Part shown: in pieces, positions 44,217 to 58,258 of the stretch
Numbering within the stretch: position 1 is the first letter of the stretch
Layout: every line of letters begins with the position of its first letter
Source of the DNA: Escherichia phage alia
Sequence record: NC_052655.1
Strand: one strand, 5' to 3'
DNA length: 64,000 nt
Notes under the pieces: model-generated
Databases searched by the model: none
Told to the model about the DNA's origin: nothing
Seen by the model: the letters and a program-made list of their open reading frames with translations, nothing else
Position numbers and translations under genes: made by a program

Positions 44217-44768
44217 ATGCGGATTACTGACAAGTATGTATTCTTCTTCTCAGCAAAAGATGAATTTAGCAACTGGTATCTATCATCTTTTATTGAACCT
44301 TTAGCACCCAAGTATAATAATTCTATTACAAATTCTGTTGAATTTACTTGTGTGGAACAATATATGATGTGGAGAAAAGCATGTTTATTTTATGATTACA
44401 ACATTGCATCCTCTATTTTAACCGGAGATCTAAGATATACAGGAGAAAAAGAACAAGCATATTATAAACGACTAGGCAGATTAGTTAAAGATTATGATGA
44501 AGATACCTGGACTTCTTTACGGGAGAAGATTGTCAAGCGTGGTTTGTATCTTAAATACACACAAAATGAAGATCTCAAAAATAAACTTATCGCTTACGCA
44601 GATAAGGAGTTTGTAGAAGCAAGCCCTTATGATTCTATTTATGGTATCAAAATGGGGATGTGGGATCGGGACGTGGAAAATAAGGATTGTTGGAAAGGAC
44701 AAAATCTTTTAGGAAAATGGCATACAGACCTTGCTGTTTATCTAAAAGCACAATCTGATATTTCCTGA
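44217..44768 (+). CDS. NADAR/YbiA-family protein
   Basis: 'FFFSAKDEFSNWYLS', 'EQYMMWRKACLF', 'LGRLVKDYDEDTW', 'KYTQNEDLKNKLI', 'FVEASPYDSIYGIKMG' follow the YbiA/DUF1768 pattern. Confidence 0.65.
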   Translation: MRITDKYVFFFSAKDEFSNWYLSSFIEPLAPKYNNSITNSVEFTCVEQYMMWRKACLFYDYNIASSILTGDLRYTGEKEQAYYKRLGRLVKDYDEDTWTSLREKIVKRGLYLKYTQNEDLKNKLIAYADKEFVEASPYDSIYGIKMGMWDRDVENKDCWKGQNLLGKWHTDLAVYLKAQSDIS

Positions 44769-44983
44769 TATTTTGAAAATTTTTATTTCTATAAAAAGGG
44801 GTGTGGGTTTCATGTACGGAAATTCACCCTCTGCACAGTATATCCAGAGTAAGTAGTATTCTGTACTCTGTTAATAAAGTATTTAATTTGTTTGTTGGAT
44901 TATGGTAGCTGATCTTTAAAAGGCATACTATCTCTTAACTACTACTTATAACAGAACAGTAAAATCGTTTTTATAAAAAGGAC

Positions 44984-45191
44984 AAAATTATTTAAAGTTT
45001 TTACAGATTTTTGGATACAAATTTTGAAAATGAAAAGTTCAAGTTTGGTCAAAATTATTTAAAGTTTTTGTACGTATTTCTATCCAGATTTTGAAAATGA
45101 AAACTTCAATTTTTTAAAAATTCCCCAGTTTATTTAAAGTTTTTTTGCCTTTTTCCGTAGAAAAATCAAAAATGAAAAGTTCAATTTCGTG
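44984..45191. repeat. three tandem ~67-bp direct repeats
   Basis: Units starting near 44984, 45051 and 45129, each '(A)AAATTATTTAAAGTTTTT-(N20-30)-GAAAATGAAAA(G/C)TTCAA'; AT-rich, non-coding. Confidence 0.7.
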
Positions 45192-45208
45192 TTTTTATAG
45201 GTATGCGT

Positions 45209-45319
45209 ATGATAATCATTCTCATTTGTAAATGAGAATCATTATCATTTAATTATGTAAGTGATAATCATTCTCAGTAAGAGAATGAGAATCATTAGCA
45301 AATGAGAATTTTCTCATTT
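45209..45319. promoter_or_regulatory. cluster of three Fur-box-like palindromes
   Basis: 'TGATAATCATTCTCATTTG-TA-AATGAGAATCATTATCA', 'GATAATCATTCTCA...GAGAATGAGAATCATTA' and 'AATGAGAA-TT-TTCTCATT'; core GATAATCATT matches the Fur-box half-site. Confidence 0.45.
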
Positions 45320-45580
45320 AGAGAATAACGCGCAGGGGCGGTGTTTGTCTCGCGCTCCCGTGTCCCCTCGCCATACAATAAGAATAGCATAACCAACAAC
45401 AAAAGCAAGCGATTATTTTTATCTTTACATTTCTTTACAAATTTATTTTAGACGAGCTACCGGCGATCAACCTTCCAACCAGTGCCCCCTGGTATGTTAG
45501 CCCCGCCTTTACGCCGTGGGGGTGGCGCTTCCTCTTCTGTATGTAAAACAGTATAAGCCCGATCCCTGGGCTTGTCAAGA

Positions 45581-45847
45581 TTATTTTTTGTTTTCTTGCC
45601 AGGATAGGACACCTAACCAAAAATACATGTCGCCCCGCGCCCCTGGCGGGATCTTGCTTTCCCCGCCGCCACTGCAAGCCCATAGATAACCATTAGCGAA
45701 CGGATCAAAATGATCTATTTCTTCCACCTTATAATCGCCCAGGTTGAGAACGGTTTCAACCTTTAAGCCCGTTGCGCTTGCTACCTGGTGCACCGTGCCG
45801 CCTTGCCAGCCCAATGAGTGCATGAGATGTAAAGGAGTATTTGTCAT
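45581..45847 (-). CDS. candidate small ORF inside a GC-rich island
   Basis: 88-aa ORF ('MTNTPLHLMHSLGWQGGTVHQV...') in a clearly more GC-rich stretch (about 45330-46100); several overlapping minus-strand ORFs make the coding call uncertain. Confidence 0.3.
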   Translation of the reverse strand: MTNTPLHLMHSLGWQGGTVHQVASATGLKVETVLNLGDYKVEEIDHFDPFANGYLWACSGGGESKIPPGARGDMYFWLGVLSWQENKK

Positions 45848-46217
45848 GGTATCGCCCTTTCTTTGATGTGCGCCCTGGTTGGCGCGGTAGAAAGATAATA
45901 GCCGTTTCCTTTATAGATAGCAAGCAAAAAAGAAATGAAAAAAGATTAAAAAAATGGTTGACGTTCCTCACCTGGTAGCGTAGTATTCATCTTGTCGAGG
46001 GGGGCGAGGCACAACGACAATAAACAAAAGGAGGGCGCAATGTAGGACGGGCAAAGGTGAGGATCTCCACAATCCACCGTCACAATAACATTACTTATAA
46101 AAGGTTGATAACGATGATCAAGAAAGAAAACAGCTTGACGGTTGGAACGATTAACGCTATCATTCTTGCCGTTCCATTTTGGGTTGTAGTAGCGGTTATT
46201 ATTTTTAAAAAATATTC

Positions 46218-46275
46218 TTGACAACGTTTTTTAATCTGATAAGATGTATCACATAGGGCGGCAATAGTGCCGCTC
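46218..46275 (+). promoter_or_regulatory. promoter + 5' stem-loop module
   Basis: TTGACA-N16-TAAGAT followed by 'CACATAGGGCGGCAATAGTGCCGCTC' (stem GCGGCA/TGCCGC), 22 nt upstream of the ATG. Confidence 0.6.
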
Positions 46276-46297
46276 ATAACAGAAGAGAGAAATAATC

Positions 46298-46570
46298 ATG
46301 GCATCATATAGCGCATCAATGATTGTAATGGGTATCACTGGTAAACCTATGCGCGGTGGCGGATCTTTCGCTAATATTAATATTGATGGACGTTTATCCC
46401 TGGACGCAGCGATCACAGTGGCACGGGAAACGTTTAAAAAAGAATGTAATTTCAATAAACAAGATTATCTCGGCTTCGTTATTGAAAAAACCGCGCGCTT
46501 TGTTGATTATAAAAGCCCGAAAATGATCGACACTACACTAAAGGCGCAAGATGTAGCTTTTTTGCTTTAA
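46298..46570 (+). CDS. hypothetical small protein (cassette gene)
   Basis: 90 aa; RBS GAGAGA. Confidence 0.5.
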   Translation: MASYSASMIVMGITGKPMRGGGSFANINIDGRLSLDAAITVARETFKKECNFNKQDYLGFVIEKTARFVDYKSPKMIDTTLKAQDVAFLL

Positions 46571-46573
46571 GGC

Positions 46574-46633
46574 TTGACACTGAAAAATAATTTGGTAATA
46601 TATACCACATAAGGCGGGAAATGGTTTCCCGCC
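46574..46633 (+). promoter_or_regulatory. promoter + 5' stem-loop module
   Basis: TTGACA-N17-AATATA followed by 'GGCGGGAAATGGTTTCCCGCC' (9-bp stem). Confidence 0.6.
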
Positions 46634-46658
46634 AGGCCATCAAAGAAAGGGTAACACA

Positions 46659-47021
46659 ATGAGCAAGCAAATCAATACTATCATGTTAAACCTGGTATCT
46701 TTCCGCGACGACGTGAAAAATCTTCCACGTGATGCAGTGGATGCACGGATCGAAAGCTATCGCTCACAGATCGCAACGCTACCGCTAAAACGTGATCAAC
46801 ATGCCGCTAATATGATGCTTAATGCTATGCTTAAAAAGATGATTCAATGTGATCTTACTCTGGCTTATGAATATGCTGGCGATCTTTTTGTAACATATAA
46901 CAAGCCCGTTCCAGGTATGAGCACCACGGAAGAATTGCATGCCTTAAATCTGCGACAAGATGCATGGGATAACATGCGCCGTGTTATGGTATGGGTAGAA
47001 AGCGGTAAAATTTACGAATAA
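46659..47021 (+). CDS. hypothetical small protein (cassette gene)
   Basis: 120 aa; RBS AAAGGG. Confidence 0.5.
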   Translation: MSKQINTIMLNLVSFRDDVKNLPRDAVDARIESYRSQIATLPLKRDQHAANMMLNAMLKKMIQCDLTLAYEYAGDLFVTYNKPVPGMSTTEELHALNLRQDAWDNMRRVMVWVESGKIYE

Positions 47022-47027
47022 AAACGG

Positions 47028-47080
47028 TTGACATTGCACTAAAACCTGATAAGCTATCTTAAAGCGGGAATAGTTCCCGC
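47028..47080 (+). promoter_or_regulatory. promoter + 5' stem-loop module
   Basis: TTGACA-N16-TAAGCT followed by 'GCGGGAATAGTTCCCGC'. Confidence 0.55.
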
Positions 47081-47099
47081 TTACATAGGATAAAACTTT

Positions 47100-47246
47100 A
47101 TGAAACAATATGTAATGAGTATTCACACCAAAAACGGCGCTACTGTTACGACTCCGGCACGGTTTGCACTTGTAAACCGTTGCAAGAGACTAAAACGAGA
47201 GCTAAAAAACAACCGTGCAACGGGCTTTAAACGCTGGGGAGGATAA
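47100..47246 (+). CDS. hypothetical small basic protein
   Basis: 48-aa ORF (below track cutoff) directly after the module. Confidence 0.35.
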   Translation: MKQYVMSIHTKNGATVTTPARFALVNRCKRLKRELKNNRATGFKRWGG

Positions 47247-47248
47247 TC

Positions 47249-47521
47249 TTGTTTTTTCTAAAAGTTTTTGATAATGTGATCGCTTTTGAACATGCTGCAA
47301 CGTTCAACCTGGCGAGATACGCTATCAGGTTTAAAGATAATGTTTATCCCCGTGCTGGTGGCGGTTACACTATCTTTAATCATCGTAACGCTCAATTAAC
47401 GGATATAACGAATCCAGATCCTGGAGTGTATCGCATAGGTTGGCTACCGTCAAAAGACGCGGCAAGCATGTTTAAGGTGTGTAAACTACTAACAGAAGAG
47501 GCGAACGAACATGGGGCGTGA
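47249..47521 (+). CDS. hypothetical small protein
   Basis: 90 aa, TTG start, GGAGGA RBS 8 nt upstream. Confidence 0.45.
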   Translation: MFFLKVFDNVIAFEHAATFNLARYAIRFKDNVYPRAGGGYTIFNHRNAQLTDITNPDPGVYRIGWLPSKDAASMFKVCKLLTEEANEHGA

Positions 47522-48065
47522 ATATGTGATCCAGTCCTGGGTAAAGCATGATGCTGATGATCCGCGCATAATACCAGATGACATGATCGATCACATGGTA
47601 GGGTATAGCGGGGAGCAGATAGGAAATCGAGCGGCAAAGAGCAACGGCAACACAAAGGCGCGATCCGTTCGCCCTGGTTGGCTGGCAAATGGTAACGCTG
47701 ACATTGCAAGCGCCGCAGATCCAAGCGATGACGCTAAAACTAATCCCTTATACAGCATTGATCCGGCTTTTAAGGTGTTAGAAGAGTATCCCGCTAAATT
47801 AGCCGCACTAGATAAGGCATACGAAGAAAAGCGCATGGCATGGACTGTATACAACACCGCTAAAATGGTGCTAGATGCAAAATTGATTAAAGCCCAGGAG
47901 AAGATCAATAAACTTGTTACCATAGTGCAAGAGGAAGACCAGGACGACCAGGAGGAAGAGGAAGAAATCATGCCTAACCTGGAAGAGGAAGAGATCCAGC
48001 CATACATGCCGACGGAAGAGGAAAAAAGACAAGCCCTAAAAAATTATGAAAATTGTCTTGTGTAA
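47511..48065 (+). CDS. hypothetical protein with acidic low-complexity tail
   Basis: 184 aa; 'QEEDQDDQEEEEEIMPNLEEEEIQ'. Confidence 0.5.
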   Translation: MGREYVIQSWVKHDADDPRIIPDDMIDHMVGYSGEQIGNRAAKSNGNTKARSVRPGWLANGNADIASAADPSDDAKTNPLYSIDPAFKVLEEYPAKLAALDKAYEEKRMAWTVYNTAKMVLDAKLIKAQEKINKLVTIVQEEDQDDQEEEEEIMPNLEEEEIQPYMPTEEEKRQALKNYENCLV

Positions 48066-48068
48066 GGC

Positions 48069-48125
48069 TTGACATATGCAAACAAGCCCCGTAATATGTA
48101 CCACATAAAGCGGGGCAACGCCCCA
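48069..48125 (+). promoter_or_regulatory. promoter + 5' stem-loop module
   Basis: TTGACA-N17-TAATAT followed by hairpin 'GCGGGGCAACGCCCC'. Confidence 0.55.
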
Positions 48126-48147
48126 TAAGGTGAAATAAAAAAATCAC

Positions 48148-48175
48148 TTGACACCTGAAATCAGTAAGCTATAAT
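48148..48175 (+). promoter_or_regulatory. consensus sigma70 promoter (tandem, second)
   Basis: Perfect TTGACA-N16-TATAAT; no stem-loop. Confidence 0.6.
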
Positions 48176-48212
48176 GCTTATATAGATTGAAACATTACTA
48201 AGGAATAAAAGC

Positions 48213-48392
48213 ATGGCTATTATTGCAAAGACTGAGATCGTAGGTTTAGATTCTATCATCCTGGCATATGAGGAAGCTATAGAAATGTATGTGGTTTCCT
48301 ATGGTGATTATATCCGTGAATATAAATCTATTGATCTAGCTTTTGAATGTTATATTCGCCAGGTCAATAAAGCCTATGATGATTATCGTTAA
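48213..48392 (+). CDS. hypothetical small protein
   Basis: 59-aa ORF (just below track cutoff) downstream of the tandem promoters. Confidence 0.35.
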   Translation: MAIIAKTEIVGLDSIILAYEEAIEMYVVSYGDYIREYKSIDLAFECYIRQVNKAYDDYR

Positions 48393-48411
48393 AAGTTTTA
48401 GTCTTGTGCTA

Positions 48412-48440
48412 TTGACAACGAACGATAGTACAAGCATAAT
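48412..48440 (+). promoter_or_regulatory. sigma70-like promoter
   Basis: TTGACA-N17-CATAAT; no stem-loop. Confidence 0.5.
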
Positions 48441-48487
48441 AACTTTTATCGGGAATACTCCTAACTAATCAAAAGAGATTAAAGACT

Positions 48488-48853
48488 ATGGCTAAAAATA
48501 TCAATGTTTCTGCTTATGCTACCCTGGCTAACACTGCTAAAATTGAACTATCCAGCATTGAAGCGGTACATATTAGCGCCCGTCGCTGGTTTCAAAAGTC
48601 TTATGGTAATACTTATTTCTCTTTGATGGTTGACGTTGAGATCGGCGGTAAACTGATTGAAGTCGTTAACGTTCCGTTTCAATATGGTTATGGTGATCAT
48701 TTTGATACCGTTGCCCTAGAAGAGTTTAGCAAGGTTATCAACCTGGAAGGTAAAGACTTTTCAAATTATGCTTACCTTTCCCGTTTTTGCCGTGACAATG
48801 GGATCGCTGTATACAGTCATGCAAGCGATGTTAAACGTAAAAAAGATTTATAA
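48488..48853 (+). CDS. hypothetical small protein (cassette gene)
   Basis: 121 aa. Confidence 0.5.
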   Translation: MAKNINVSAYATLANTAKIELSSIEAVHISARRWFQKSYGNTYFSLMVDVEIGGKLIEVVNVPFQYGYGDHFDTVALEEFSKVINLEGKDFSNYAYLSRFCRDNGIAVYSHASDVKRKKDL

Positions 48854-48859
48854 AAAGCA

Positions 48860-48917
48860 TTGACAGCACGAATAAAAAGCATATAATACTTATATCGAGA
48901 GCGGGAATAGTTCCCGC
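48860..48917 (+). promoter_or_regulatory. promoter + 5' stem-loop module
   Basis: TTGACA-N16-TATAAT followed by 'GCGGGAATAGTTCCCGC'. Confidence 0.65.
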
Positions 48918-48941
48918 CTCACTGAAAAAGAGATTAACATC

Positions 48942-49181
48942 ATGGCTAAATCTAAAATGTACAACGGTCACAAAAATAAAACTCATTGGAATGTAAGCCT
49001 TTGGATCAACAACGATGAAGGTTTTTATAATCTTGCGCGTGAATTTATCGCAGCTAACACCAATAAGAATGACGCAGCGCGTGATATGATGTTATTTCTT
49101 GAAAGTATGGATCAAGATAAAACGCCAGACGGATTCAAGTTCAGTAAAACTGCAATCCGTGCCGCTATGGTTGGAATGTAA
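48942..49181 (+). CDS. hypothetical small protein (cassette gene)
   Basis: 79 aa. Confidence 0.5.
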   Translation: MAKSKMYNGHKNKTHWNVSLWINNDEGFYNLAREFIAANTNKNDAARDMMLFLESMDQDKTPDGFKFSKTAIRAAMVGM

Positions 49182-49194
49182 AGGAGACATAAAA

Positions 49195-49275
49195 ATGAAA
49201 CATCGTTCGACCTATCTGACAAAACGTTTTAGCTTAGATCATAAATTAGGCTATTACGGAAGAAATAGAAAATAA
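49195..49275 (+). CDS. hypothetical micro-ORF
   Basis: 26-aa ORF with a GGAGA RBS; may be non-coding. Confidence 0.2.
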   Translation: MKHRSTYLTKRFSLDHKLGYYGRNRK

Positions 49276-49276
49276 T

Positions 49277-49336
49277 TTGACAACGTTTAAAATTAGTGTA
49301 AGATGTATCACATAGGGCGGGAAATGGTTTCCCGCC
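49277..49336 (+). promoter_or_regulatory. promoter + 5' stem-loop module
   Basis: TTGACA-N16-TAAGAT followed by 'CACATAGGGCGGGAAATGGTTTCCCGCC'. Confidence 0.6.
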
Positions 49337-49358
49337 AAATCAAAGAAAGGTTATCATT

Positions 49359-49586
49359 ATGGCTATCGTTATTGTTCGCGTATCCGGTACGGTTGGGATC
49401 TCCCAGGTAGTAGCAGTTATCACCGAGAAGAAAGGAGATGATCTTCACTCCTCCTTGAATAGCTGGGCGGTCGCTAACTTTGGGCAATGGTCGAGCGTTG
49501 AGTACATCGAATCCTACCAGGTGCCAACGATTAGCCTAACCGATCTAAATGTTGATCGCTTGTTGTGCCTGGATCAATTAAACTAA
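49359..49586 (+). CDS. hypothetical small protein (cassette gene)
   Basis: 75 aa. Confidence 0.5.
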   Translation: MAIVIVRVSGTVGISQVVAVITEKKGDDLHSSLNSWAVANFGQWSSVEYIESYQVPTISLTDLNVDRLLCLDQLN

Positions 49587-49594
49587 AAATAATA

Positions 49595-49652
49595 TTGACA
49601 AGATAACTAAAATCAGTAAAATGTAATGCATAGGGCGGCAATAGTGCCGCTC
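49595..49652 (+). promoter_or_regulatory. promoter + 5' stem-loop module
   Basis: TTGACA-N16-TAAAAT followed by 'GCATAGGGCGGCAATAGTGCCGCTC'. Confidence 0.6.
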
Positions 49653-49673
49653 CTAGTGAGAGAGATTATCAAG

Positions 49674-49889
49674 ATGGCTAATATCCGCACACTGTTAAAA
49701 AATGCAAGTCAAGTTTTATTTTCAGATGACGAGTATTTCAACAAAGACATTACAGGCGTGAAAAATTTAAAAGACGTGAAGGATGTTATCGGTATCCGTG
49801 GATCTTTACGTAAAGGTGACATATACGGTAACAAGGTGCAATATAAACTGTCAAAAGATTATGATTTTACTTTGACATTTATTTCATAA
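49674..49889 (+). CDS. hypothetical small protein (cassette gene)
   Basis: Start at 'MANIRT' (track start 49626 lies inside the stem-loop). Confidence 0.5.
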   Translation: MANIRTLLKNASQVLFSDDEYFNKDITGVKNLKDVKDVIGIRGSLRKGDIYGNKVQYKLSKDYDFTLTFIS

Positions 49890-49895
49890 AACCGC

Positions 49896-49956
49896 TTGCA
49901 ATACTGCAAAAATAAAGTAAACTGTATTCATCAAGGCGGTGGAATAGCCCACCGCC
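49896..49956 (+). promoter_or_regulatory. promoter + 5' stem-loop module
   Basis: TTGCAA-N16-TAAACT followed by 'GGCGGTGGAATAGCCCACCGCC' (8-bp stem). Confidence 0.5.
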
Positions 49957-49979
49957 TAACAAAGAGAAGAGGAAACATC

Positions 49980-50150
49980 ATGATCACTTTCGCTACCCGT
50001 GAAGCCGCTCGCAACGTTGCACGTAAAGTTAACGCCGCCAACCTGGGCGCTACGCTTAAAGCCCCGGTAAAAGATGAATCAGGTAAATGGATCTTCCCTG
50101 GTCTGCGTCACGCTGATAAGCTGGGAACGTTAACGCTAAAAAATAAATAA
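49980..50150 (+). CDS. hypothetical small protein (cassette gene)
   Basis: 56 aa, start at 'MITFATRE' with a GAGGAAA RBS. Confidence 0.45.
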   Translation: MITFATREAARNVARKVNAANLGATLKAPVKDESGKWIFPGLRHADKLGTLTLKNK

Positions 50151-50157
50151 AATCCGC

Positions 50158-50216
50158 TTGACAGTAGCATCATTTATAAGTAAAGTAACAACAACGGCGG
50201 GAAATGGTTTCCCGCC
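50158..50216 (+). promoter_or_regulatory. promoter + 5' stem-loop module
   Basis: TTGACA-N17-TAAAGT followed by 'GGCGGGAAATGGTTTCCCGCC'. Confidence 0.6.
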
Positions 50217-50236
50217 ATCAATAAAGAGATAAGATC

Positions 50237-50596
50237 ATGAAATCAGTAAAAGCAATTAAAACTTACATTGTGTCGGCTATTTCTTTTGATGGTACTACAA
50301 CCGAAAAAGAAAAGATCACCGAACTGATGCGCCGTTTTAACTCTGAATACTGGTATCCCGATAATCAAAAACGTTACAATTATAACGTGATCAAGGCGAT
50401 AGCCTCATGGTTACAAGGTTTACCGTCAGAAATCAATATTGCTTTTGATTATAACGAGATCGATCACTTGTTAATTGAATGGAAGTACATAAAAGAAACA
50501 AGCAAAGAAACAACCGTTACCCGTGAGCGGGAAAATTATTGGTTATATATTGCAAGCATGATCGTAATCCTGGCAAAACAGCATAACGTGGCGTAA
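50237..50596 (+). CDS. hypothetical small protein (cassette gene)
   Basis: 119 aa. Confidence 0.5.
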   Translation: MKSVKAIKTYIVSAISFDGTTTEKEKITELMRRFNSEYWYPDNQKRYNYNVIKAIASWLQGLPSEINIAFDYNEIDHLLIEWKYIKETSKETTVTRERENYWLYIASMIVILAKQHNVA

Positions 50597-50611
50597 TTAA
50601 GAGGAAGAAAC

Positions 50612-50749
50612 ATGAACGCATCACAGCAGATCGAAAAATTCAACCGCAGCAAGGCGCGTAAAGATTGGAACGAAGAGATCACCAAAAAAGGCGACAAGCG
50701 GAACAAAACAAAGAGAGATCGCAGCACAAAAAGATACTGGAACGAATAA
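50612..50749 (+). CDS. hypothetical small Lys/Arg-rich protein
   Basis: 45-aa ORF with a GAGGAAGAAA RBS. Confidence 0.35.
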   Translation: MNASQQIEKFNRSKARKDWNEEITKKGDKRNKTKRDRSTKRYWNE

Positions 50750-50756
50750 CAAAAAA

Positions 50757-50777
50757 GGGCGCAATAAGCGCCCTTTT
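50757..50777 (+). terminator. intrinsic terminator (GGGCGC-aataa-GCGCCC-TTTT)
   Basis: Perfect 6-bp GC stem plus T-run. Confidence 0.6.
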
Positions 50778-50867
50778 AGCTTATATAGAGGCTTGTTACC
50801 CATAGGCAATGGTAACGCCAGGATAAGCCTATAAACCACGTTAGACAGCTTTACAGGAGCTTTAAAA

Positions 50868-51050
50868 ATGAAATTAGAAGAAATAAGCAAGGCACTAGCC
50901 CAGGGGCAAAGGTTAAACGCCCGTTATCGTGATCAATATGGCTTCATAACCAGCGGCGTGATCCTGGGGATTGAAGGCAATAAGATTTTTATTGACACGT
51001 TGAAAAACGTTGTATATAGTGACAATATAATCTCAATAAAACATATATGA
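50868..51050 (+). CDS. hypothetical small protein
   Basis: 60 aa; upstream hairpin 'GTTACC-cataggcaat-GGTAAC' near 50797. Confidence 0.45.
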   Translation: MKLEEISKALAQGQRLNARYRDQYGFITSGVILGIEGNKIFIDTLKNVVYSDNIISIKHI

Positions 51051-51058
51051 GGCAAGAA

Positions 51059-51460
51059 ATGAAAAAATTATTGATCGCTGGTTTAATCTCTTTTGGCATG
51101 GTTGGAACATCTAGCGCGGCGATATCCTCCACAGTAGCAGAATTAAGCGCCGTTGATGCAATGGAAAACGTCATGCTTATTAATAATGCGATCCCCGATG
51201 AAATCATGGAGGATTCACACATGATCGCTTATGGTGCTGTTACACAACTAACGGCAAAAATAGATAAATCTATTGCTAATGGCTTAAATGAAGATGTACC
51301 ATGTGAAATTATTACCAGTGTGCTAACGACTCAAAATTTTACGCCGTGGTTAAAAAGTATTCAAAAGGTACACAGCACCGCCGCAGATCGTAGCAATGAA
51401 AAACTGGTGTCAGCACTTGCAACGTATACCCTAGCAAAATGCACCGAAATAAAAGATTGA
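51059..51460 (+). CDS. hypothetical secreted protein
   Basis: Signal peptide 'MKKLLIAGLISFGMVGTSSAA'; start moved from 51047. Confidence 0.5.
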   Translation: MKKLLIAGLISFGMVGTSSAAISSTVAELSAVDAMENVMLINNAIPDEIMEDSHMIAYGAVTQLTAKIDKSIANGLNEDVPCEIITSVLTTQNFTPWLKSIQKVHSTAADRSNEKLVSALATYTLAKCTEIKD

Positions 51461-51484
51461 CAACATAGAAAGCACGTTATAAGA
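51458..51484 (+). promoter_or_regulatory. sigma70-like promoter
   Basis: TTGACA (overlapping the upstream stop)-N15-TATAAG; GGAGAA RBS follows. Confidence 0.35.
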
Positions 51485-51507
51485 TACACACAACAAAGGA
51501 GAACTAC

Positions 51508-51810
51508 ATGAACGGCATAGCTAAAACGTTTTTTCTTTTTTCTGGTGTAAATAATCCATCAATAAAAGTCGATAGTGTAAAAGAAAACAATACTATCACC
51601 GCTAAATTGTTTCAAGATGAAACAAATAACGTGCTAATCATTAATCTTAAAGAAATAACGAAAGGTTATTATACTATTGCTTACCATGCGATCTATCATG
51701 CGGGTACTAGTGAGGAAGTGCAAACAAGCAACAACGAAAGCGCGGCGCTACCTGGTGATCTGGTGCTGGGTGTTATCAGTTTAATTGTCAATGATTTTTT
51801 TAAGGAGTAA
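51508..51810 (+). CDS. hypothetical protein
   Basis: 100 aa. Confidence 0.45.
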   Translation: MNGIAKTFFLFSGVNNPSIKVDSVKENNTITAKLFQDETNNVLIINLKEITKGYYTIAYHAIYHAGTSEEVQTSNNESAALPGDLVLGVISLIVNDFFKE

Positions 51811-52068
51811 AACCATGCCCTATTTACATTTATTTTTCGGGATCTTATTGTCAGGATCTTTTTTCTTCTGTATACTTGTTTCTATTGTAAACCACGTTTT
51901 AAGACATTAAGGAAACAGCATGAAAATTATTCCCGTACAATATAGCGTAATAAATCCAGCATACGAGGAAGGAAGGAAAACAAGCATGGCTTTATGTTGT
52001 ATTGCTACTATAGCCATGTTGTTATGCATTGTGTTTTAATAGGTTTTATAGTTGTACGCTTTAAAGGC

Positions 52069-52097
52069 TTGACAATTTTTTGTTATGCTTTAAACTA
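52069..52097 (+). promoter_or_regulatory. sigma70-like promoter
   Basis: TTGACA-N17-AAACTA; weak -10. Confidence 0.35.
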
Positions 52098-52139
52098 TAT
52101 CTTGAAAACGGCAAAGGCCGCAAACAAAAGGGTAAAATT

Positions 52140-52463
52140 ATGAAATCTGTGATCGGTGTTTATTTGGATAACTCTGATTTTTTCTATCATCGTGCTCGTT
52201 TCCTTGATGCGATTGAAATGATAGAATCAGGCTTTAAAGAGTATCGCCTTGCACATGATGACCTGGAAGCATTACAGGGCAATAGTGTTTTTACATTGCA
52301 AGCTAAAGCACTATGCAAAAGCCGGATCGACATTGCGAGCAAAAAGATAGAACGCGGCATGTCCTGGTTACGCACCGCAGAAATCAACATGGGGCAATGG
52401 TACGGCGAAAACTTAGAAAATAAACATGCTTTTGTCAATGTAGAAAATATTGAAGATTATTGA
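52140..52463 (+). CDS. hypothetical small protein (cassette gene)
   Basis: Start at 'MKSVIGVY' (track start 52080). Confidence 0.45.
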   Translation: MKSVIGVYLDNSDFFYHRARFLDAIEMIESGFKEYRLAHDDLEALQGNSVFTLQAKALCKSRIDIASKKIERGMSWLRTAEINMGQWYGENLENKHAFVNVENIEDY

Positions 52464-52525
52464 TTGACAGCACACCTGATAAGGAGTATATTGTATCTCA
52501 TAGAGCGGGGAAATGGTTTCCCCGC
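52464..52525 (+). promoter_or_regulatory. promoter + 5' stem-loop module
   Basis: TTGACA-N17-TATATT followed by 'GCGGGGAAATGGTTTCCCCGC'. Confidence 0.6.
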
Positions 52526-52545
52526 CTTAACAGAAGAGATAAGAT

Positions 52546-52830
52546 ATGAAGATCACAAAAGCACTTTCCAACTATGCAGCACGTCGCGGATTATGCTTAT
52601 CCGTTGAAAACTTAGGGAAAGAAGATTTTTTGTGCTTTTGGGAGCTTGAGAATGATAATGAGTGGATCTTCTCTTATTCTATCTGCGAAGATCAAAACGG
52701 TTGTTTATTAACCTGGCGCGGTAATATCTATCTACCGGAAGAAATCAAAGAAGAATTGCCAGGCACGATCATGACTGAGAAACAGCTTAAGGAAGTGATT
52801 AATTTTGTAGGGCAAAACATTAAAAAATAA
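52546..52830 (+). CDS. hypothetical small protein (cassette gene)
   Basis: 94 aa. Confidence 0.5.
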   Translation: MKITKALSNYAARRGLCLSVENLGKEDFLCFWELENDNEWIFSYSICEDQNGCLLTWRGNIYLPEEIKEELPGTIMTEKQLKEVINFVGQNIKK

Positions 52831-52831
52831 T

Positions 52832-52891
52832 TTGACACTAGGCAAACAACGTAGTAAAGTTTATCACATAGGGCGGGAAATGGTTTCCCGC
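52832..52891 (+). promoter_or_regulatory. promoter + 5' stem-loop module
   Basis: TTGACA-N17-TAAAGT followed by 'CACATAGGGCGGGAAATGGTTTCCCGC'. Confidence 0.6.
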
Positions 52892-52914
52892 TCACAACAG
52901 AAGAGAAACACATC

Positions 52915-53085
52915 ATGATCCCGACTATGTTTTACGTATCGCGCAAAGGTCACAATATTTTTTGGTCTGAAGATTTAAATGAAGCCATGACGTTTGCCCG
53001 TGATCGTGTTGCTATCGGTGGCGTTAACATTACCGTAACCGATGAAAACGGCATTGAATACTATAACGGCGACGATGAAGAGTAA
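52915..53085 (+). CDS. hypothetical small protein
   Basis: 56-aa ORF (below track cutoff). Confidence 0.4.
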   Translation: MIPTMFYVSRKGHNIFWSEDLNEAMTFARDRVAIGGVNITVTDENGIEYYNGDDEE

Positions 53086-53092
53086 TTAATAA

Positions 53093-53113
53093 GGCGGGGG
53101 AGTATTCCCCGCC
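53093..53113 (+). promoter_or_regulatory. 5' stem-loop without an obvious -35/-10
   Basis: 'GGCGGGGGAGTATTCCCCGCC' 20 nt upstream of the next ATG. Confidence 0.4.
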
Positions 53114-53132
53114 GTCAATAAAGAGGTAAATC

Positions 53133-53402
53133 ATGAAAATATCTTTGGACGTTGCAATCAAGGCCATCGAATCCGGTTACACCCTGGTAAAAGATGATAA
53201 GGCTAAAACCGTGCACCACGTTAACAAGGAAACAGGCGAAAGCATGATCACATATAAAGCCGCCTACTTTCTCCAATCAGTAGCAGATCCGCGCGTACAA
53301 CGCCAGGTTACAGCGGCTATTGCTAAAAAATTATGTGCTTTACAGGGCACAAGTTTTAACGAGATCGCCCCGTGTTTTGACTGGTCGAGCTTGAAAAAAT
53401 AG
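53133..53402 (+). CDS. hypothetical small protein (cassette gene)
   Basis: 89 aa. Confidence 0.5.
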   Translation: MKISLDVAIKAIESGYTLVKDDKAKTVHHVNKETGESMITYKAAYFLQSVADPRVQRQVTAAIAKKLCALQGTSFNEIAPCFDWSSLKK

Positions 53403-53403
53403 T

Positions 53404-53461
53404 TTGACAACAATTATAAATCGGGTAGAATGTATTTCGTAGGGCGGCAATAGTGCCGCTC
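53404..53461 (+). promoter_or_regulatory. promoter + 5' stem-loop module
   Basis: TTGACA-N16-TAGAAT followed by 'GGGCGGCAATAGTGCCGCTC'. Confidence 0.6.
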
Positions 53462-53482
53462 ACAACTAAAAGAGAAATCAGC

Positions 53483-53677
53483 ATGGCGCTTAAAAAACTA
53501 ACAAGCAATACTCGTTGGGATGAAATCGACGGAGAAGTTTACATTTTCGCCCGTAAACCAGGTGATCAAAAATGGTCAAAGGCTTTTACTTGCCACCCTG
53601 CAACAATAGATCTAATAAAAAGTAAAGGTTTACGTGAAGCAGTAGCGAGAAGTTTACTGATCCCTTATAAAAAATAG
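53483..53677 (+). CDS. hypothetical small protein (cassette gene)
   Basis: Start at 'MALKKLTS' (track start 53453). Confidence 0.45.
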   Translation: MALKKLTSNTRWDEIDGEVYIFARKPGDQKWSKAFTCHPATIDLIKSKGLREAVARSLLIPYKK

Positions 53678-53678
53678 T

Positions 53679-53740
53679 TTGACAATATGCTGTTATCTGG
53701 TAAAGTGTACGACATAGGGCGGGGCAATAAGGCAACGCCC
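53679..53740 (+). promoter_or_regulatory. promoter + 5' stem-loop module (variant loop)
   Basis: TTGACA-N16-TAAAGT followed by 'GGGCG-gggcaataaggcaa-CGCCC'. Confidence 0.5.
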
Positions 53741-53758
53741 ATTAATGAGGGTAGAATC

Positions 53759-53863
53759 ATGTTAGAGAAAATTTTCACGGTTGTAATAGTGGGCCTGGCG
53801 TTATCGGTTGGATTGGTTGCAACTATGGCTAACATGATCCTATCTTCCCACGGTATTGGATAA
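53759..53863 (+). CDS. hypothetical hydrophobic micro-protein
   Basis: 34-aa ORF 'MLEKIFTVVIVGLALSVGLVATMANMILSSHGIG'. Confidence 0.3.
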   Translation: MLEKIFTVVIVGLALSVGLVATMANMILSSHGIG

Positions 53864-53873
53864 GGTGAATCAA

Positions 53874-54089
53874 ATGATCACGAATAAGACAGGTAAAACA
53901 GAATTTTTACGCGGCTTGCAAATAGGTAAACCTGAGATCTGGCATTGCACTAAATCCGCGCATAATGAAATGAAAGATTTTACCGCTACTTTACAACGTG
54001 TTAAAATATCTATCACACAGAAAAAAGCCTTGTTAGTAGTAGAAAACGAGATCCCGCAAACCATTATTATTGTCGAGCGTACAGCATGA
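53874..54089 (+). CDS. hypothetical small protein
   Basis: Start at 'MITNKTG' (track start 53856). Confidence 0.45.
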   Translation: MITNKTGKTEFLRGLQIGKPEIWHCTKSAHNEMKDFTATLQRVKISITQKKALLVVENEIPQTIIIVERTA

Positions 54090-54472
54090 AAACTGAAATC
54101 ATTAACGAAATGATCAACGGCTATAAAGAAGCCTTTATTTTTGCCGAACCAGCGACGGATCACAATGGGGAATATATTGAGAATCTAGACGATTATGATT
54201 TTTCTCCTAGCGCCCTGAAACGTATTACCAGCGATGTGACCGCCTTTTGTAGTGCCAATGTTGCCGCTATCTCTGAGGCAATGAGCGACGGCGCAACAGC
54301 AAACCAGATCGGGAATGACTTACATTTCACCCGTAACGGTCACGGCGTAGGCTTTTGGGATCGCCCTGAAATATACACTACTAACACCGCCAACCGCCTA
54401 ACAAATGCAGCTAAATTAATGCCATCGGTGCATGCTTACATTGGTGAAGATAATTTGATTTATATTGAATAA
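54086..54472 (+). CDS. hypothetical protein
   Basis: 128 aa; ATGA start/stop overlap. Confidence 0.5.
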   Translation: MKTEIINEMINGYKEAFIFAEPATDHNGEYIENLDDYDFSPSALKRITSDVTAFCSANVAAISEAMSDGATANQIGNDLHFTRNGHGVGFWDRPEIYTTNTANRLTNAAKLMPSVHAYIGEDNLIYIE

Positions 54473-54478
54473 AAAGTA

Positions 54479-54537
54479 TTGACACCGATCCCCAATATGG
54501 TATTATTTACCACGTAGGCGGGAAATGGTTTCCCGCC
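54479..54537 (+). promoter_or_regulatory. promoter + 5' stem-loop module
   Basis: TTGACA-N16-TATTAT followed by 'GGCGGGAAATGGTTTCCCGCC'. Confidence 0.6.
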
Positions 54538-54560
54538 AGGTAATCAAAAAGGTAAATACT

Positions 54561-54950
54561 ATGCGCAACCTGGTTTCTGTTTCTAACGTTGAAAAATTCC
54601 AATCTTTACAGGGTATCGTTAACAACGTAGCGCCTTTTTTAGTAAACGGCTTGATTGCAAAGATGAAAAATAAACATCATGCGGCATGGTCTGCTTATTG
54701 CTTTGATAATGATGAAAAAGCGGCTGAAATGATGTTAGATATGCTGTTAGATAGTGTAGAAACATCTTTACCGGAAAACATCGCAGAAGAGATCACCTAT
54801 CGTTATAATATGGCGATCACTTACCAGGAGGTTGCGCAATTCAACATGATGGATGATGACGAACAACAGGATCAAGAAATGTTTTGGGAGTATGCAGATC
54901 GTCAATCGGCTTTTGATGAAAAGTTAGCGATGTATTATAACGAATATTAA
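54561..54950 (+). CDS. hypothetical small acidic protein (cassette gene)
   Basis: Start at 'MRNLVSVS' (track start 54525). Confidence 0.5.
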   Translation: MRNLVSVSNVEKFQSLQGIVNNVAPFLVNGLIAKMKNKHHAAWSAYCFDNDEKAAEMMLDMLLDSVETSLPENIAEEITYRYNMAITYQEVAQFNMMDDDEQQDQEMFWEYADRQSAFDEKLAMYYNEY

Positions 54951-54967
54951 TACACGGTAAAAGAAAG

Positions 54968-54990
54968 GGGCGCACTAAGCGCCCTTTTTT
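54968..54990 (+). terminator. intrinsic terminator (GGGCGC-actaa-GCGCCC-TTTTTT)
   Basis: Same stem as the terminators at 50757 and 56137. Confidence 0.65.
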
Positions 54991-55335
54991 GTATTCTTTT
55001 TTCACGATGGAAACAACACGTAAAGAATAGGCGTAAAGGTGGCGTAAAACAGTCTAAAACCGATTATAACCGCTTAAACAAGGTAACAATGACTAATCAC
55101 CTTGCCAGGATGAAAAAGCTGTTAGAAAGCTGTTTAGAGCGTTTAAAGCACATAGGAAATAACTTGCTTTTTATCTTGCCTTTTATCCTGCTTTTGATTA
55201 TTATTATGGAACGGGCGGCACCTGGGGACAGGGGAAGATAATCACCGGAAGATCTTATCATATATTGATAGCTTCCCCCTATCAAACAACAAAACATTAA
55301 AGAGATAAACTATCAAATCTTTACAATCCTACCTA

Positions 55336-55364
55336 TTGACCGATAAATCACAACAGTTTAATAT
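55336..55364 (+). promoter_or_regulatory. sigma70-like promoter
   Basis: TTGACC-N17-TAATAT, about 48 nt upstream of the ATG at 55413. Confidence 0.4.
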
Positions 55365-55412
55365 TGTTTTTAGAGGTTAGAATATTCCCCAAACGAAAAC
55401 AGGAAAAAGAAA

Positions 55413-55649
55413 ATGAAAGAAGTCATGATCCTCAAAAAATCACCTATTTTACGTGGCGGTTTTATCGCTTACTCTGATGATCTGTTAATTGCAACAGTTG
55501 CAAAAATACTAAAATCAGAAGAGGATAGTAAAAACGGCGTTTATCGTATCTGTTTCACCCGTGGAAAATTACAAGGCAAGATCGCCTATGCCTTTGATTT
55601 ACAAGATGTAAATGATAAAATCTGCGCTGTTATTGATTATGCAAAATAA
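55413..55649 (+). CDS. hypothetical small protein
   Basis: 78 aa. Confidence 0.45.
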   Translation: MKEVMILKKSPILRGGFIAYSDDLLIATVAKILKSEEDSKNGVYRICFTRGKLQGKIAYAFDLQDVNDKICAVIDYAK

Positions 55650-55661
55650 TTAACTTTCTTA

Positions 55662-55690
55662 TTGACACCGGATCACGCTTACATTATTAT
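55662..55690 (+). promoter_or_regulatory. sigma70-like promoter
   Basis: TTGACA-N17-TATTAT; downstream 'CACGTAGGGCAAATC' looks like a degenerate copy of the stem-loop. Confidence 0.5.
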
Positions 55691-55736
55691 TTATCACGTA
55701 GGGCAAATCATTTTAAACGGTAAACGAGGAAACACC

Positions 55737-56120
55737 ATGAGCAATATCATCAACCTGGCGGCTACTGTAAACGGTAAAGATTTTAACGGCGCTGTAGATC
55801 GTGATCCTATGTGGTGCTTATCAGTGTTTAAAGGCGATCTGGTTGAAGTTAGAACAACCGAAGGGTATAGCGATGATTATAAATGCGAGATCCATTTACA
55901 TAACTGGTACACGGGTAAAACTTATGCGCTGAATCATGCGTTTATCGGGAAAATTGAATATCGCGAGATGATCGACGAAGAAACGGGGCAAGATTTTAGC
56001 GAGCATGTTTATATTCGTTCAGAAACATTAGCCGAACGTTTGATCGAGAAAATGAAAGCAAAAAATAAAATTAATTTATCTCATTGGATTGATATAACAA
56101 ACGATCCGGCTTATCAGTAA
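55737..56120 (+). CDS. hypothetical small protein (cassette gene)
   Basis: Start at 'MSNIINLA' (track start 55662) with a GAGGAAA RBS. Confidence 0.5.
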   Translation: MSNIINLAATVNGKDFNGAVDRDPMWCLSVFKGDLVEVRTTEGYSDDYKCEIHLHNWYTGKTYALNHAFIGKIEYREMIDEETGQDFSEHVYIRSETLAERLIEKMKAKNKINLSHWIDITNDPAYQ

Positions 56121-56136
56121 ATAACATTTCATACAA

Positions 56137-56162
56137 GGGCGCTTATTGCGCCCTTTCTTTTT
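56137..56162 (+). terminator. intrinsic terminator (GGGCGC-ttatt-GCGCCC-TTTCTTTTT)
   Basis: Third copy of the GGGCGC/GCGCCC stem; closes the cassette region. Confidence 0.65.
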
Positions 56163-56364
56163 ACCTAAATAAAGATGATAGCTTTTACCTATCAAAAACG
56201 TTCACCGAAAAAAGTGAATAGATCGCGGTATCGAGCTAATCAAGGAGCAGATGAACAACCATACCATGAAGATCATAAGGCGCTTACAGCGTGTTTTAGA
56301 CCGCTTATTTTTAATTTCTTCATGTAACTATCTGGCAAAAACAGCCTTTTTCTTGTCTTTCCTC

Positions 56365-56445
56365 TTAAATGATAATCATTCTTATTTATAGCTGATTATT
56401 TATGCAATAAACTGCATAATGCAATAATGATAATCATTCTTAACT
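56365..56445. promoter_or_regulatory. Fur-box-like repeats
   Basis: Two copies of 'AATGATAATCATTCTTA' separated by about 40 nt. Confidence 0.4.
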
Positions 56446-56819
56446 TAAGACCATCTAACTTATAAAATAATAAGTTATCTAACTAAATTAAAGCTAATTA
56501 TCTTACTTTTATTTATAACATACTGTTACTATCTTATTGATAACCTTATATTAAACAACAATAATCAATGTAAATCATTACTAAGCTAACTATAATCTAT
56601 CTAACCCTTAAAACTACAATTATAATCTATCAAATTGTTGCACAAAGTAACTATTAAATTGTTAGTAACATTGCTAAATAATTAATATCCTATCTATTTA
56701 TGATCTAATCTTTACCTCCCTATCTATTACCTAAATAACCATTTCATGTGGTAATCATTTCATACAATAACTATAACAAGAAATATAATTCGCAAGCGTA
56801 TCATTAGCAGCCTATGCCG

Positions 56820-56985
56820 GACACATAGGCGGCTAATAATAACGCAACTACACACCCCACATAATAACCATCACCGATAGTTATTATTTGTGCTTATGTA
56901 GCTTGCAACAATTGCAAGCGCAACAATATACATGGTATATTGTATCCCTTACATTGTTGCGGTGCGTTATTATTAGCTAATGTTT
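56820..56985. repeat. inverted repeats around a TTGCAA-caa-TTGCAA palindrome
   Basis: 'GCTAATAATAACGCA' with its reverse complement 'GCGTTATTATTAGC' about 130 nt away; central 'GCTTGCAA-caa-TTGCAAGC'; hairpin 'GCCTATG-ccggaca-CATAGGC'. Confidence 0.5.
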
Positions 56986-57282
56986 AGAACATTGGCTATA
57001 ATATAAGCTAAGTAATAAGCTAGTCAATAATAAACATAATGAATAATGACATTAATGATCATAATGCGCCACCCTCCAGGGGGCGCTATGTGAACACAAA
57101 GAAATCATTCTTGTCAAGAAAAATATCACCCTATTGCGCAAAATTATTTATATCTGAATAGATGATTTTTCATACTATTGCCCCCTATAACATACCTCAT
57201 TTGTTGAGCCTACTTTCTTAAAAGCGCAATAAAGTAGAATTATCTTGATTTTTAGTCGGTTTTATAGTACAGAAAGTATGCA

Positions 57283-57298
57283 AATGATAATCATTATC
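57283..57298. promoter_or_regulatory. near-consensus Fur box
   Basis: 'AATGATAATCATTATC' matches 16 of 19 positions of GATAATGATAATCATTATC. Confidence 0.45.
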
Positions 57299-57462
57299 AG
57301 CTATCCTCCAGGGTGGCACTATTTCACGCCAGATCATTTCATTTGGCAAGGTGTATATAGATGTTTAGAAATGCCAAGCCATTGATTTACTTAGAATTTA
57401 TCTGTTTTGTTGTGAGTAGTACCTTTCTTGCTTAGAAAATAATCAAAAGTCTTATAAGTCAT

Positions 57463-57498
57463 TGAATGATAATGCAAATGATAATTATTCTCATTGAT
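57463..57498. promoter_or_regulatory. Fur-box-like hexamer array
   Basis: 'TGAATGATAATGCAAATGATAATTATTCTCATTGAT'. Confidence 0.4.
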
Positions 57499-57940
57499 AT
57501 TTGAGGGGGACGGTCGGCAGAAATCGGGGGGCGCTGAAAATCGCGTTAAGCACCTCTCGCAAGCGAGCAGTATTTTGCGGCAAGTTATTGATATTATTGA
57601 CTTTACGCTTATGAAAAGGGGTGTGTCGAAATAAATCGGGTATACCGGAAAATTTTTTGTGGCATAGATATTTATTTGTCTATATTATGTACAAAGGGGT
57701 GTGTTAAAAATAATAGGTATATATAGAATAATTGATAGGGAAATCCTATACTAAATCCTTCATTAATGATGTTCCTATGTTGCTGTTCTTGTAACAGATG
57801 AAAAGACGCTGTATGATGTGTAGCATGAGACGTAAATTTATAAGATGCAAATAATGCTTGCATTGAATAGAAATGTCTGTACACTGTGTTCCATAAGATA
57901 TGCAATATCGCGCATAACAAACTACTAATGAGAGGTGTAA

Positions 57941-58258
57941 ATGAGAACCTTAGCTTTGTATATTGATCCTCACTCCATTCGAGAAATGCGAGATGTACAA
58001 CAGGATTATGAATTCTACCCAGAAATTTGTGAACGCTATGAAACTATTCTTAGTTCTGTAGAAGATCCAGATACTAGTGAAACAGGTGCTTCCCACTTAC
58101 TGTGGATGTTGAATGAAATTCAGGATGGGTGTAATGATATGTCTGAAACCAAACGCCATCGTTGGCTAGGCTATATTCAGGGTGTTATGGTTATGAAAAA
58201 CCTTATTACAGTGAACGATGAACGTAACGCTACACGCCCCGTCTTTAATGGAGCATAA
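57941..58258 (+). CDS. hypothetical protein (first gene of a coupled operon)
   Basis: 105 aa; GAGAGG RBS. Confidence 0.5.
   Translation: MRTLALYIDPHSIREMRDVQQDYEFYPEICERYETILSSVEDPDTSETGASHLLWMLNEIQDGCNDMSETKRHRWLGYIQGVMVMKNLITVNDERNATRPVFNGA

Follow-up and report, generated by a model that had tools for sequence, protein, structure and literature searches.

The 64,000 bp window analysed here, from Escherichia phage alia (NC_052655.1), carries three copies of a ~40 bp bipartite element (here called S1, S2 and S3; Table 1) whose 3' half is the 11-mer AAAGGGGTGTG and whose 5' half is GATATT, with an AT-rich spacer between them. Justusliebigvirus, Phapecoctavirus and Klebsiella phages of the subfamily Stephanstirmvirinae have equivalent elements at the three corresponding loci, and the elements lack sigma70 promoter, terminator and known-RNA features. 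Our tentative reading, at somewhat less than even confidence, is that S1-S3 are bound by a single sequence-specific factor, probably encoded by the phage, which would control transcription into two arrays of small genes.

A first-pass annotation of the window had described the 11-mer as occurring at three intergenic sites, each preceded by a TATG/TATA-like sequence, with two of them less than 330 bp upstream of the operon that begins at 57941, and every part of this description is borne out. AAAGGGGTGTG occurs exactly three times in the window, always on the + strand, against 0.05 copies expected from dinucleotide shuffles of the window, none of which (0/100) reached three; there is no copy on the - strand of the window, and a one-mismatch search of it returns no further site. 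TATA or TATG stands 5' of every copy (TATAAAAAGGGG, TATGAAAAGGGG, TATGTACAAAGGGG). The S1 11-mer starts 27 nt past the stop codon of a NADAR gene (Pfam; open reading frame (ORF) 44217-44768), and S2 and S3 are both inside 1.6 kb of ORF-free sequence (56327-57940), at distances of 326 and 248 bp from the downstream ORF at 57941. No annotated feature underlies the matches to these sites in related phages. Since only ~11.5% of the bases of a related genome are non-coding (crude ORF mask), the placement of all three copies outside ORFs is also non-random (p ~0.0015 for three random matches). A k-mer enrichment analysis of crude intergenic segments gave no informative signal. The genome-wide count proposed in the same annotation gives the same number: in VEcB, a complete relative (148,885 bp), the motif, with runs of four to seven G allowed, is found only three times, at the orthologous loci.

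Taken alone, GATATT has a frequency of roughly one per 1.7 kb of strand. Joined to the G-run as GATATT-N19-26-RGGGGTG it is found three times in the window against 0.01 expected, and the three window copies all fit a spacer of N19-22 followed by AAAGGGGTGTG. At S1 the GATATT is tandem, reading GATATTtcctGATATT, and the TGA stop of the NADAR gene falls within TGATATT; directly 3' of S3 is a conserved block, AAAAATAAT-GGTATATATAGAATAATTGATAGG. Generalized across relatives, the element consists of GATATT, often in tandem with a 9-10 bp period, an AT-rich spacer of 22-26 nt, and a G-run followed by TGT(G/C). All good copies share one orientation, and there are only three per genome. A relaxed bipartite pattern returns the same three non-coding sites plus two coding matches both in VEcB and in a Phapecoctavirus (0.57 in shuffles). 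With so few copies per complete genome, a general class of middle or late promoters is ruled out, and the motif is never found upstream of the - strand structural operons in 148.9 kb of genome. The first-pass suggestion of 'a phage-specific promoter or regulator-binding site' is not supported in its first half as a promoter class and fits best in its second; the element is real and conserved, and the regulator-binding interpretation is plausible. The GATATT half, the terminal-repeat adjacency of two of the copies and the neighbouring Fur-box clusters described below were not part of that annotation.

Table 1. Elements S1-S3, related sequences and the terminal repeat, in window coordinates.
Feature	Coordinates	Strand	Composition and basis
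Element S1	44757..44805	+	tandem GATATT (44757-62, 44767-72), 22 nt AT-rich spacer, AAAGGGGTGTG at 44795-44805
Element S2	57590..57625	+	GATATT (57590-95), TTGACT, spacer, 11-mer (57615-25)
Element S3	57667..57703	+	GATATT (57667-72), spacer, 11-mer (57693-703)
Possible degenerate fourth element S-1	57496..57531	+	GATATT-N24-GGGGGG, inside terminal repeat
Partial inverted copy	56850..56867	-	TTATTATGTGGGGTGTGT, without GATATT, inside 146 nt inverted-repeat structure
S1 hairpin	44797..44832	+	motif is the 5' arm (AGGGG-U-GUGGGUUUC paired with GAAAUUCAC-CCUCU), 14 pairs, z = -2.3
Collapsed 342 bp direct terminal repeat	57207..57548		phi92 annotation, alignment, BME3 record ends

Membership of S-1 in this family is uncertain: the Klebsiella phage has a convincing counterpart (GGGGGTGCC), Phapecoctavirus a poor one with GG only. 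The end of the S-1 G-run is separated by 17 nt from the inner terminal-repeat boundary. The inverted partial copy is probably not a family member.

Two of the three elements lie close to a physical genome end. The phi92 record is annotated with a 343 bp direct terminal repeat (positions 1-343); by alignment, phi92 position 1 corresponds to window position 57207 and the inner repeat boundary to 57548, within GAAAATCGCGTTA/AGCAC (slash at the cut). The termini of the BME3 record fall at window positions 57207 and 57547, and a PhageTerm-derived terminal repeat of 342 bp is reported for this phage (PMC12210895); the BME3 record is internally inconsistent in its layout and in its direct terminal repeat (DTR) feature, and only its two ends were used for boundary mapping. 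Together, the phi92 and BME3 ends indicate that the window is a permuted assembly in which the terminal repeat has been collapsed. S2 and S3 therefore sit 67 and 145 bp inside the inner repeat boundary, in unique left-end sequence, and the genes downstream of them, from 57941, are homologs of phi92 gp001 onward, the first left-end operon. S1 is located directly 3' of the NADAR gene, ~12 kb (8.1%) from the right genome end of phi92, where it opens a 1.5 kb region without a + strand gene ahead of the early array. Genes in the window are on the - strand in 1-40000 and on the + strand in 40000-64000, and GC skew tracks this gene orientation only. Several further features of the ends can be noted. 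The inner boundary (57532-57553, ...TCGCGTTA/AGCAC) is conserved in three lineages, the outer boundary (57195-57215) reads ...TTTGTTG/AGCCTAC, and both cuts fall just 5' of AGC. A scan of IMG/VR with the 15-mer at the terminal-repeat boundary returned mostly chance matches and only 3 relatives. An IHF core consensus, TATCAATAACTTG, on the - strand at 57581-57593 overlaps the GATATT at the left edge of S2 and has an equivalent in the Klebsiella phage (TATCAATATGTTG); window-wide the consensus is not enriched (9 found, 7 expected). In BME3 (PP239276.1, 145700-147371) a 415 nt end piece is duplicated, with a junction within the S2 G-run, and the DTR-L feature is 73 nt off the record end, most likely an artefact of assembly or annotation.

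The window belongs to Justusliebigvirus, the phi92-like myoviruses of E. coli, and shows 95-97% identity to many genomes of that genus. Four records filed as Campylobacter phages, A150, A145, C3 and A110a (MG065639, MG065645, MG065656, MG065689), match this E. coli phage type at ~96% identity in the region and are probably contaminants or mislabelled. Beyond Justusliebigvirus, distant BLAST aligns only short blocks around S2 and S3 in the terminus region, and the flank of S1 gives no alignment. The elements are nevertheless found at the same loci. Phapecoctavirus 536P1 has GATATT-N26-GGTGTC after its NADAR stop (S1), GATATT-N23-GGGTGTC at S2 and GATATT-N24-GGGGTGTC at S3; in Klebsiella phage KP13-26 the S1 form, past the NADAR-equivalent gene, is GATATT-N25-GGGGGTGGGG and the S2 form GATATT-N22-GGGGGTGGC, with the G-run absent at S3. 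At S2, the Phapecoctavirus and Klebsiella phages carry a -35-like TTGnCn followed after 17 nt by GGTGTG, GGTGTC or GGGTGG. GATATT is present in 13 of the 13 copies compared, and spacer length is conserved site by site among orthologs. The bases 3' of the G-run tend to match within a genome (TGTG at all three sites in the window, TGTC at all three in 536P1, TGG(G/C) in KP13-26), and the difference between Justusliebigvirus and Phapecoctavirus in these bases, despite their common host E. coli, points to a reader encoded by the phage, which we consider more likely than a host protein. Conservation past the subfamily was sought by way of the NADAR gene and rejected, the NADAR gene of Vequintavirinae being in a different neighbourhood with no such element.

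From these features we infer protein binding at S1-S3, a phage origin of the protein and a transcriptional output. Each site marks the 5' border of non-coding DNA that runs rightward to + strand small-gene arrays. It is at these upstream borders of the two ORF-free control regions that the putative factor would influence transcription, with S1 gating the region that leads to the early-gene array and S2 and S3 together gating the first left-end operon, ahead of which there is no strong host promoter. It might do so at a factor-dependent promoter or as an operator or roadblock, host sigma70 RNA polymerase alone presumably not recognizing the site. A transcriptional role is ranked first because it is what S1 and S2/S3 would have in common; the identical 11-mer at S1, far from the terminus, is also more easily accommodated by such a role than by one in packaging.

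This interpretation must be tempered by several observations. Scored with a sigma70 position weight matrix, 10 sites from 4 lineages range from -1.2 to 8.6 with a mean of ~4, not above a null drawn from the same AT-rich regions (mean 2.8, 95th percentile 7.7), and no -10-like hexamer keeps a consistent position among sites and lineages. There is no protein-coding gene within 1.5 kb downstream of S1. Of the four candidate copies, three are grouped at the terminal-repeat boundary, an arrangement also compatible with packaging. The match of bases after the G-run within genomes has exceptions, with BI-EHEC mixing TGTG at S2 with TGTC at S3, phiWec179 lacking the G-run at S1 and reading GGGGGCAT at S2, and arall carrying TGTA at S3, so that the argument from clean within-genome covariation is weakened and was set aside. 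The length of the G-run differs among isolates (4-6 at S2, 3-5 at S3), which would be odd for a rigid site, although some of this variation may be homopolymer sequencing error. Finally, our literature search found no transcriptome of a Stephanstirmvirinae phage.

The first-pass annotation had also placed the motif apart from the sigma70-like early promoters, correctly: those promoters score 13-15 with the same matrix. Such scores are reached in the region 46.1-55.7 kb, an array of small genes each with a near-consensus sigma70 promoter upstream; the best score ahead of 57941 is 9.5, and there is no strong promoter there. At S1-S3 there is no properly spaced -10/-35 pair, and a consensus scan lists none. 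A profile of the early cassettes (nhmmer, 13 members) recovers 14 cassettes at E-values of 1e-5 to 1e-17 and leaves S1-S3 unmatched at E <= 100. Specific promoter arrangements were considered and rejected: GATATT as a -10 has, by eye, no -35 at 16-18 nt in any copy; the motif as a -35 fits S3 alone (GTGTTA-17-TAGAAT, score 7.3), phAPEC8 and 536P1 having TGGGAT there; and a - strand promoter at S2 (TCGACA-18-TAAAGT) is not common to S1, S3 or the other genera. A T4-type late promoter, TATAAATA, was likewise discarded, with 7/8 positions matching at S1 (TATAAAAA), 6/8 at S2 (TATGAAAA) and no match at S3; TATAAATA itself occurs 6 times in the window, unrelated in position to S1-S3. Searched by eye, binding sites for CRP, FNR, sigma32 and sigma54, DnaA boxes, RfaH ops and boxA gave nothing convincing, the best being a relaxed DnaA box (8/9) at S3. 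The motif does not itself conform to a Fur box (GATAATGATAATCATTATC), true matches to which lie nearby. Protection from RecBCD in the manner of Chi was dismissed by reasoning, as the sequence is unlike GCTGGTGG and the orientation is wrong for guarding the end. We found no paper that mentions the motif in a phage; the rV5 paper describes only sigma70 promoters plus a TggTAaAAtA late motif (PMC3606486).

Several other readings of the element compete with recognition by a transcription factor. That S1-S3 are weak host sigma70 promoters, with TATAAA, TATGAA and TATGTA as the -10 and the G-run as a GC-rich discriminator or start region, is improbable: a TAT-type hexamer does precede each copy, and individual sites can be parsed respectably (GTGGCA-16-TATATT at S3, 8.4; CTGATA-18-TAGAAT at the Klebsiella S1, 8.6), but the TAT-type hexamers lack the T at -7, the spacers vary from 15 to 19 nt, the scores are at background, the consensus scan is silent, and the -10-like hexamer shifts position among sites and lineages. 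Less probable again is an element acting at the RNA level, as a 5' stabilizing hairpin, a processing site, a terminator or a Shine-Dalgarno-like sequence. The case for it comes from S1, where the motif is the 5' arm of a 14 bp hairpin kept in the Klebsiella phage (a 13-pair hairpin at the same place but of different sequence; Phapecoctavirus folds otherwise), and where GGGGUG can pair with the anti-Shine-Dalgarno and an ATG at 8 nt spacing opens a 14-codon ORF. S2 and S3, however, are without a common fold (z = -1.4 and -0.2), which led us to reject a common RNA structure, and neither is followed by a start codon; since the mini-ORF at S1 is also not conserved, a Shine-Dalgarno plus mini-ORF arrangement was rejected as well. 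No intrinsic terminator is called at S1-S3, there being no U-run after the S1 hairpin and only weak folding at S2 and S3. Rfam yields nothing on the window at the gathering threshold and chance-level matches only at E <= 1; the window also has no tRNA.

The position of most copies near the terminus invites readings in terms of DNA rather than RNA synthesis. The likeliest of these, though still unlikely, is that S-1, S2 and S3 are sites for the terminase small subunit around a cut at the inner repeat boundary, with S1 an outlying or secondary copy. S2, S3 and S-1 are all within 150 bp of the boundary (67 and 145 bp for the first two, and for S-1 a G-run ending just short of the cut block GAAAATCGCGTTA/AGCAC), as expected of terminase-type repeats; all copies face away from the left end into the genome; there is the IHF core consensus across the edge of S2; and packaging would be expected to begin at the left-end array if ejection starts with the right end and its strong early promoters. 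Set against this are S1, with its identical 11-mer 12.8 kb away and no cut-site-like sequence; the divergence of S-1, which is nearest the cut and yet the least canonical copy (GGGGGGCGCT), with almost no G-run in Phapecoctavirus; and a distance from boundary to S2 that is not fixed, varying from 40 to 53 nt among lineages. A replication origin is less probable. S1-S3 would then be initiator sites or start zones for primer transcripts beside AT-rich unwinding regions, and a G-run on the non-template strand would favour R-loops, as at T4 and T7 origins. Low copy number and AT-rich, repeat-rich, ORF-free DNA at both loci (three 70 bp tandem repeats after S1, 1.2 kb of 32% GC before S2) agree with this, and the S2/S3 tandem pair, 78 bp apart, resembles the promoter pair at the primary origin of T7; no promoter is apparent for a primer transcript, however, and GC skew reflects gene orientation only. 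We think it improbable, too, that a phage enzyme or virion protein reads the element as a nick site or a pause in DNA ejection, S1 setting the limit of an early segment that enters first, as in T5. The three sites do resemble the nick consensus of T5 and phiKMV-like phages in their low copy number, their specificity to a lineage and their location on one strand, S1 is ~12 kb from the phi92 right end and ahead of a region dense in direct and inverted repeats, and the BME3 junction falls inside the S2 G-run, though that record is visibly mis-assembled; but neither nicks nor two-step ejection have been reported for the subfamily, and the junction is explained most simply as an artefact of assembly or annotation. 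Also improbable is the broader idea that a phage-encoded or virion factor structures the linear genome through S1-S3, by nicks or an ejection pause, with S1 limiting the segment that enters first and S2/S3 marking the other end, or else that the elements form a new type of factor-dependent promoter in which a sigma70-like -35 is combined with a G-rich element that replaces the -10.

The surroundings of the element hold several features of note in their own right. Near-consensus E. coli Fur boxes cluster beside both loci, at 45207-45310, 56367-56445, 57280-57298 and 57476-57494. The Fur 19-mer GATAATGATAATCATTATC with up to 3 mismatches has 5 matches in the window where 0.00 are expected, and TGATAATCATTCTCA with up to 2 mismatches has 12 where 0.29 are expected, 10 of the 12 within the two ORF-free regions. 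The clusters are conserved in Phapecoctavirus and Klebsiella phages, and one box is inside the terminal repeat. On sequence grounds this suggests iron- and Fur-dependent control, or Fur titration, by a virulent phage; a literature search found nothing on this, and these clusters may be more striking than the element itself.

Between S1 and the adjacent Fur-box cluster are three tandem ~70 bp AT-rich repeats (44968-45187; ...ATTATTTAAAGTTTTT...AAATGAAAAGTTCAA...), with similar repeats in the corresponding position of Phapecoctavirus and the Klebsiella phage. Beyond the cluster, the GC-rich segment 45320-45900 shows unusually high nucleotide conservation across genera and contains only short - strand ORFs (a phi92 gp224 homolog) with no Pfam match, and could be coding sequence or a structured RNA; within it, a strong - strand promoter-like site (45578-45550) is directed leftward over the Fur-box cluster to S1. 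From 46208 to 55708 there are ~14 copies of a ~70 bp cassette, one ahead of each small early gene, in which a TTGACA-16/17-TAnnnT sigma70 promoter is followed by a gtatCACATAGGGCGGGAAATGGTTTCCCGCC 5' stem-loop, an arrangement resembling the promoter-early stem-loops (PeSL) of T4-type phages. Near the right genome end, a 146 nt structure (56832-56977) is closed by a perfect 15 bp inverted repeat (GCTAATAATAACGCA and TGCGTTATTATTAGC) and holds the partial inverted motif copy; its arms show compensatory changes in Phapecoctavirus (...AAGCCA and TGGCTT...), and a structured RNA and a cruciform are both conceivable. The gene two places upstream of S1 encodes a 465 aa protein (42819-44216) with five CapR-homology domains and a T5orf172 (GIY-YIG-like) domain; this protein, longer than its phi92 homolog, is probably a mobile endonuclease.

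For Stephanstirmvirinae, which include phi92, phAPEC8 and many phage-therapy candidates, the regulatory circuitry described so far consists of predicted sigma70 promoters. A three-copy element that is conserved across the subfamily and brackets the early block and the terminus offers a handle on a factor for a transcription switch, packaging or replication, and together with the adjacent conserved Fur-box clusters it marks two compact, directly testable control regions. Should the element prove an ordinary operator or packaging repeat, its value would lie mainly in better annotation of about 100 sequenced genomes; were the nick or ejection reading true, a myovirus subfamily unrelated to T5 would have a nick system or two-step entry of the T5 kind. 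What is new here is an undescribed element within the familiar category of phage cis-acting recognition repeats, and the novelty is modest.

Among known systems of this category, the R1-R3 repeats of lambda cosB are likewise few direct repeats within ~150 bp of a terminase cut on its genome-internal side, with an IHF consensus over one copy. In contrast to lambda, the present phage has an identical extra copy 12.8 kb away, bipartite elements with a 22-26 nt spacer, and a direct terminal repeat rather than cohesive ends, and terminase binding is here only hypothetical. The three early promoters of N4, near its left end and read by a phage-supplied RNA polymerase, share with S1-S3 a very low copy number, a location near an end, a single orientation, no relation to the sigma70 consensus and, in the case of S1, a hairpin; but Stephanstirmvirinae are not known to have a phage RNA polymerase, a conserved hairpin is lacking at S2 and S3, and one copy is far from the end. 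The MotA middle promoters of T4, where an activator box replaces the -35, offer the idea of a short box read by a phage factor without a full sigma70 promoter, yet T4 has ~30 of them with a good -10 at fixed spacing, as opposed to three sites without a fixed -10 here. T7, with phiOL, phiOR and the promoter pair of its primary origin, is similar in placement, S2 being ~409 nt from the phi92 left end just past the terminal repeat, in the tandem pair ~78 bp apart, and in a possible link of transcription, replication and packaging in both; its promoters, however, are read by T7 RNA polymerase, number 17 and are dissimilar in sequence. The T5 first-step-transfer boundary is also a repeat-rich non-coding region, ~8% from the genome end, that bounds early genes, but the T5 early block is within a 10 kb terminal repeat and no two-step ejection is known here, so that the likeness is positional only. 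Closest to hand are the phage's own early cassettes. The elements resemble them in having A/T-rich DNA upstream, at S2 a TTGAC-like hexamer, and at S1 a G-rich sequence and a hairpin directly downstream, and differ from them in having no TAnnnT hexamer at 16-17 nt and in drawing no response from the cassette hidden Markov model at E = 100.

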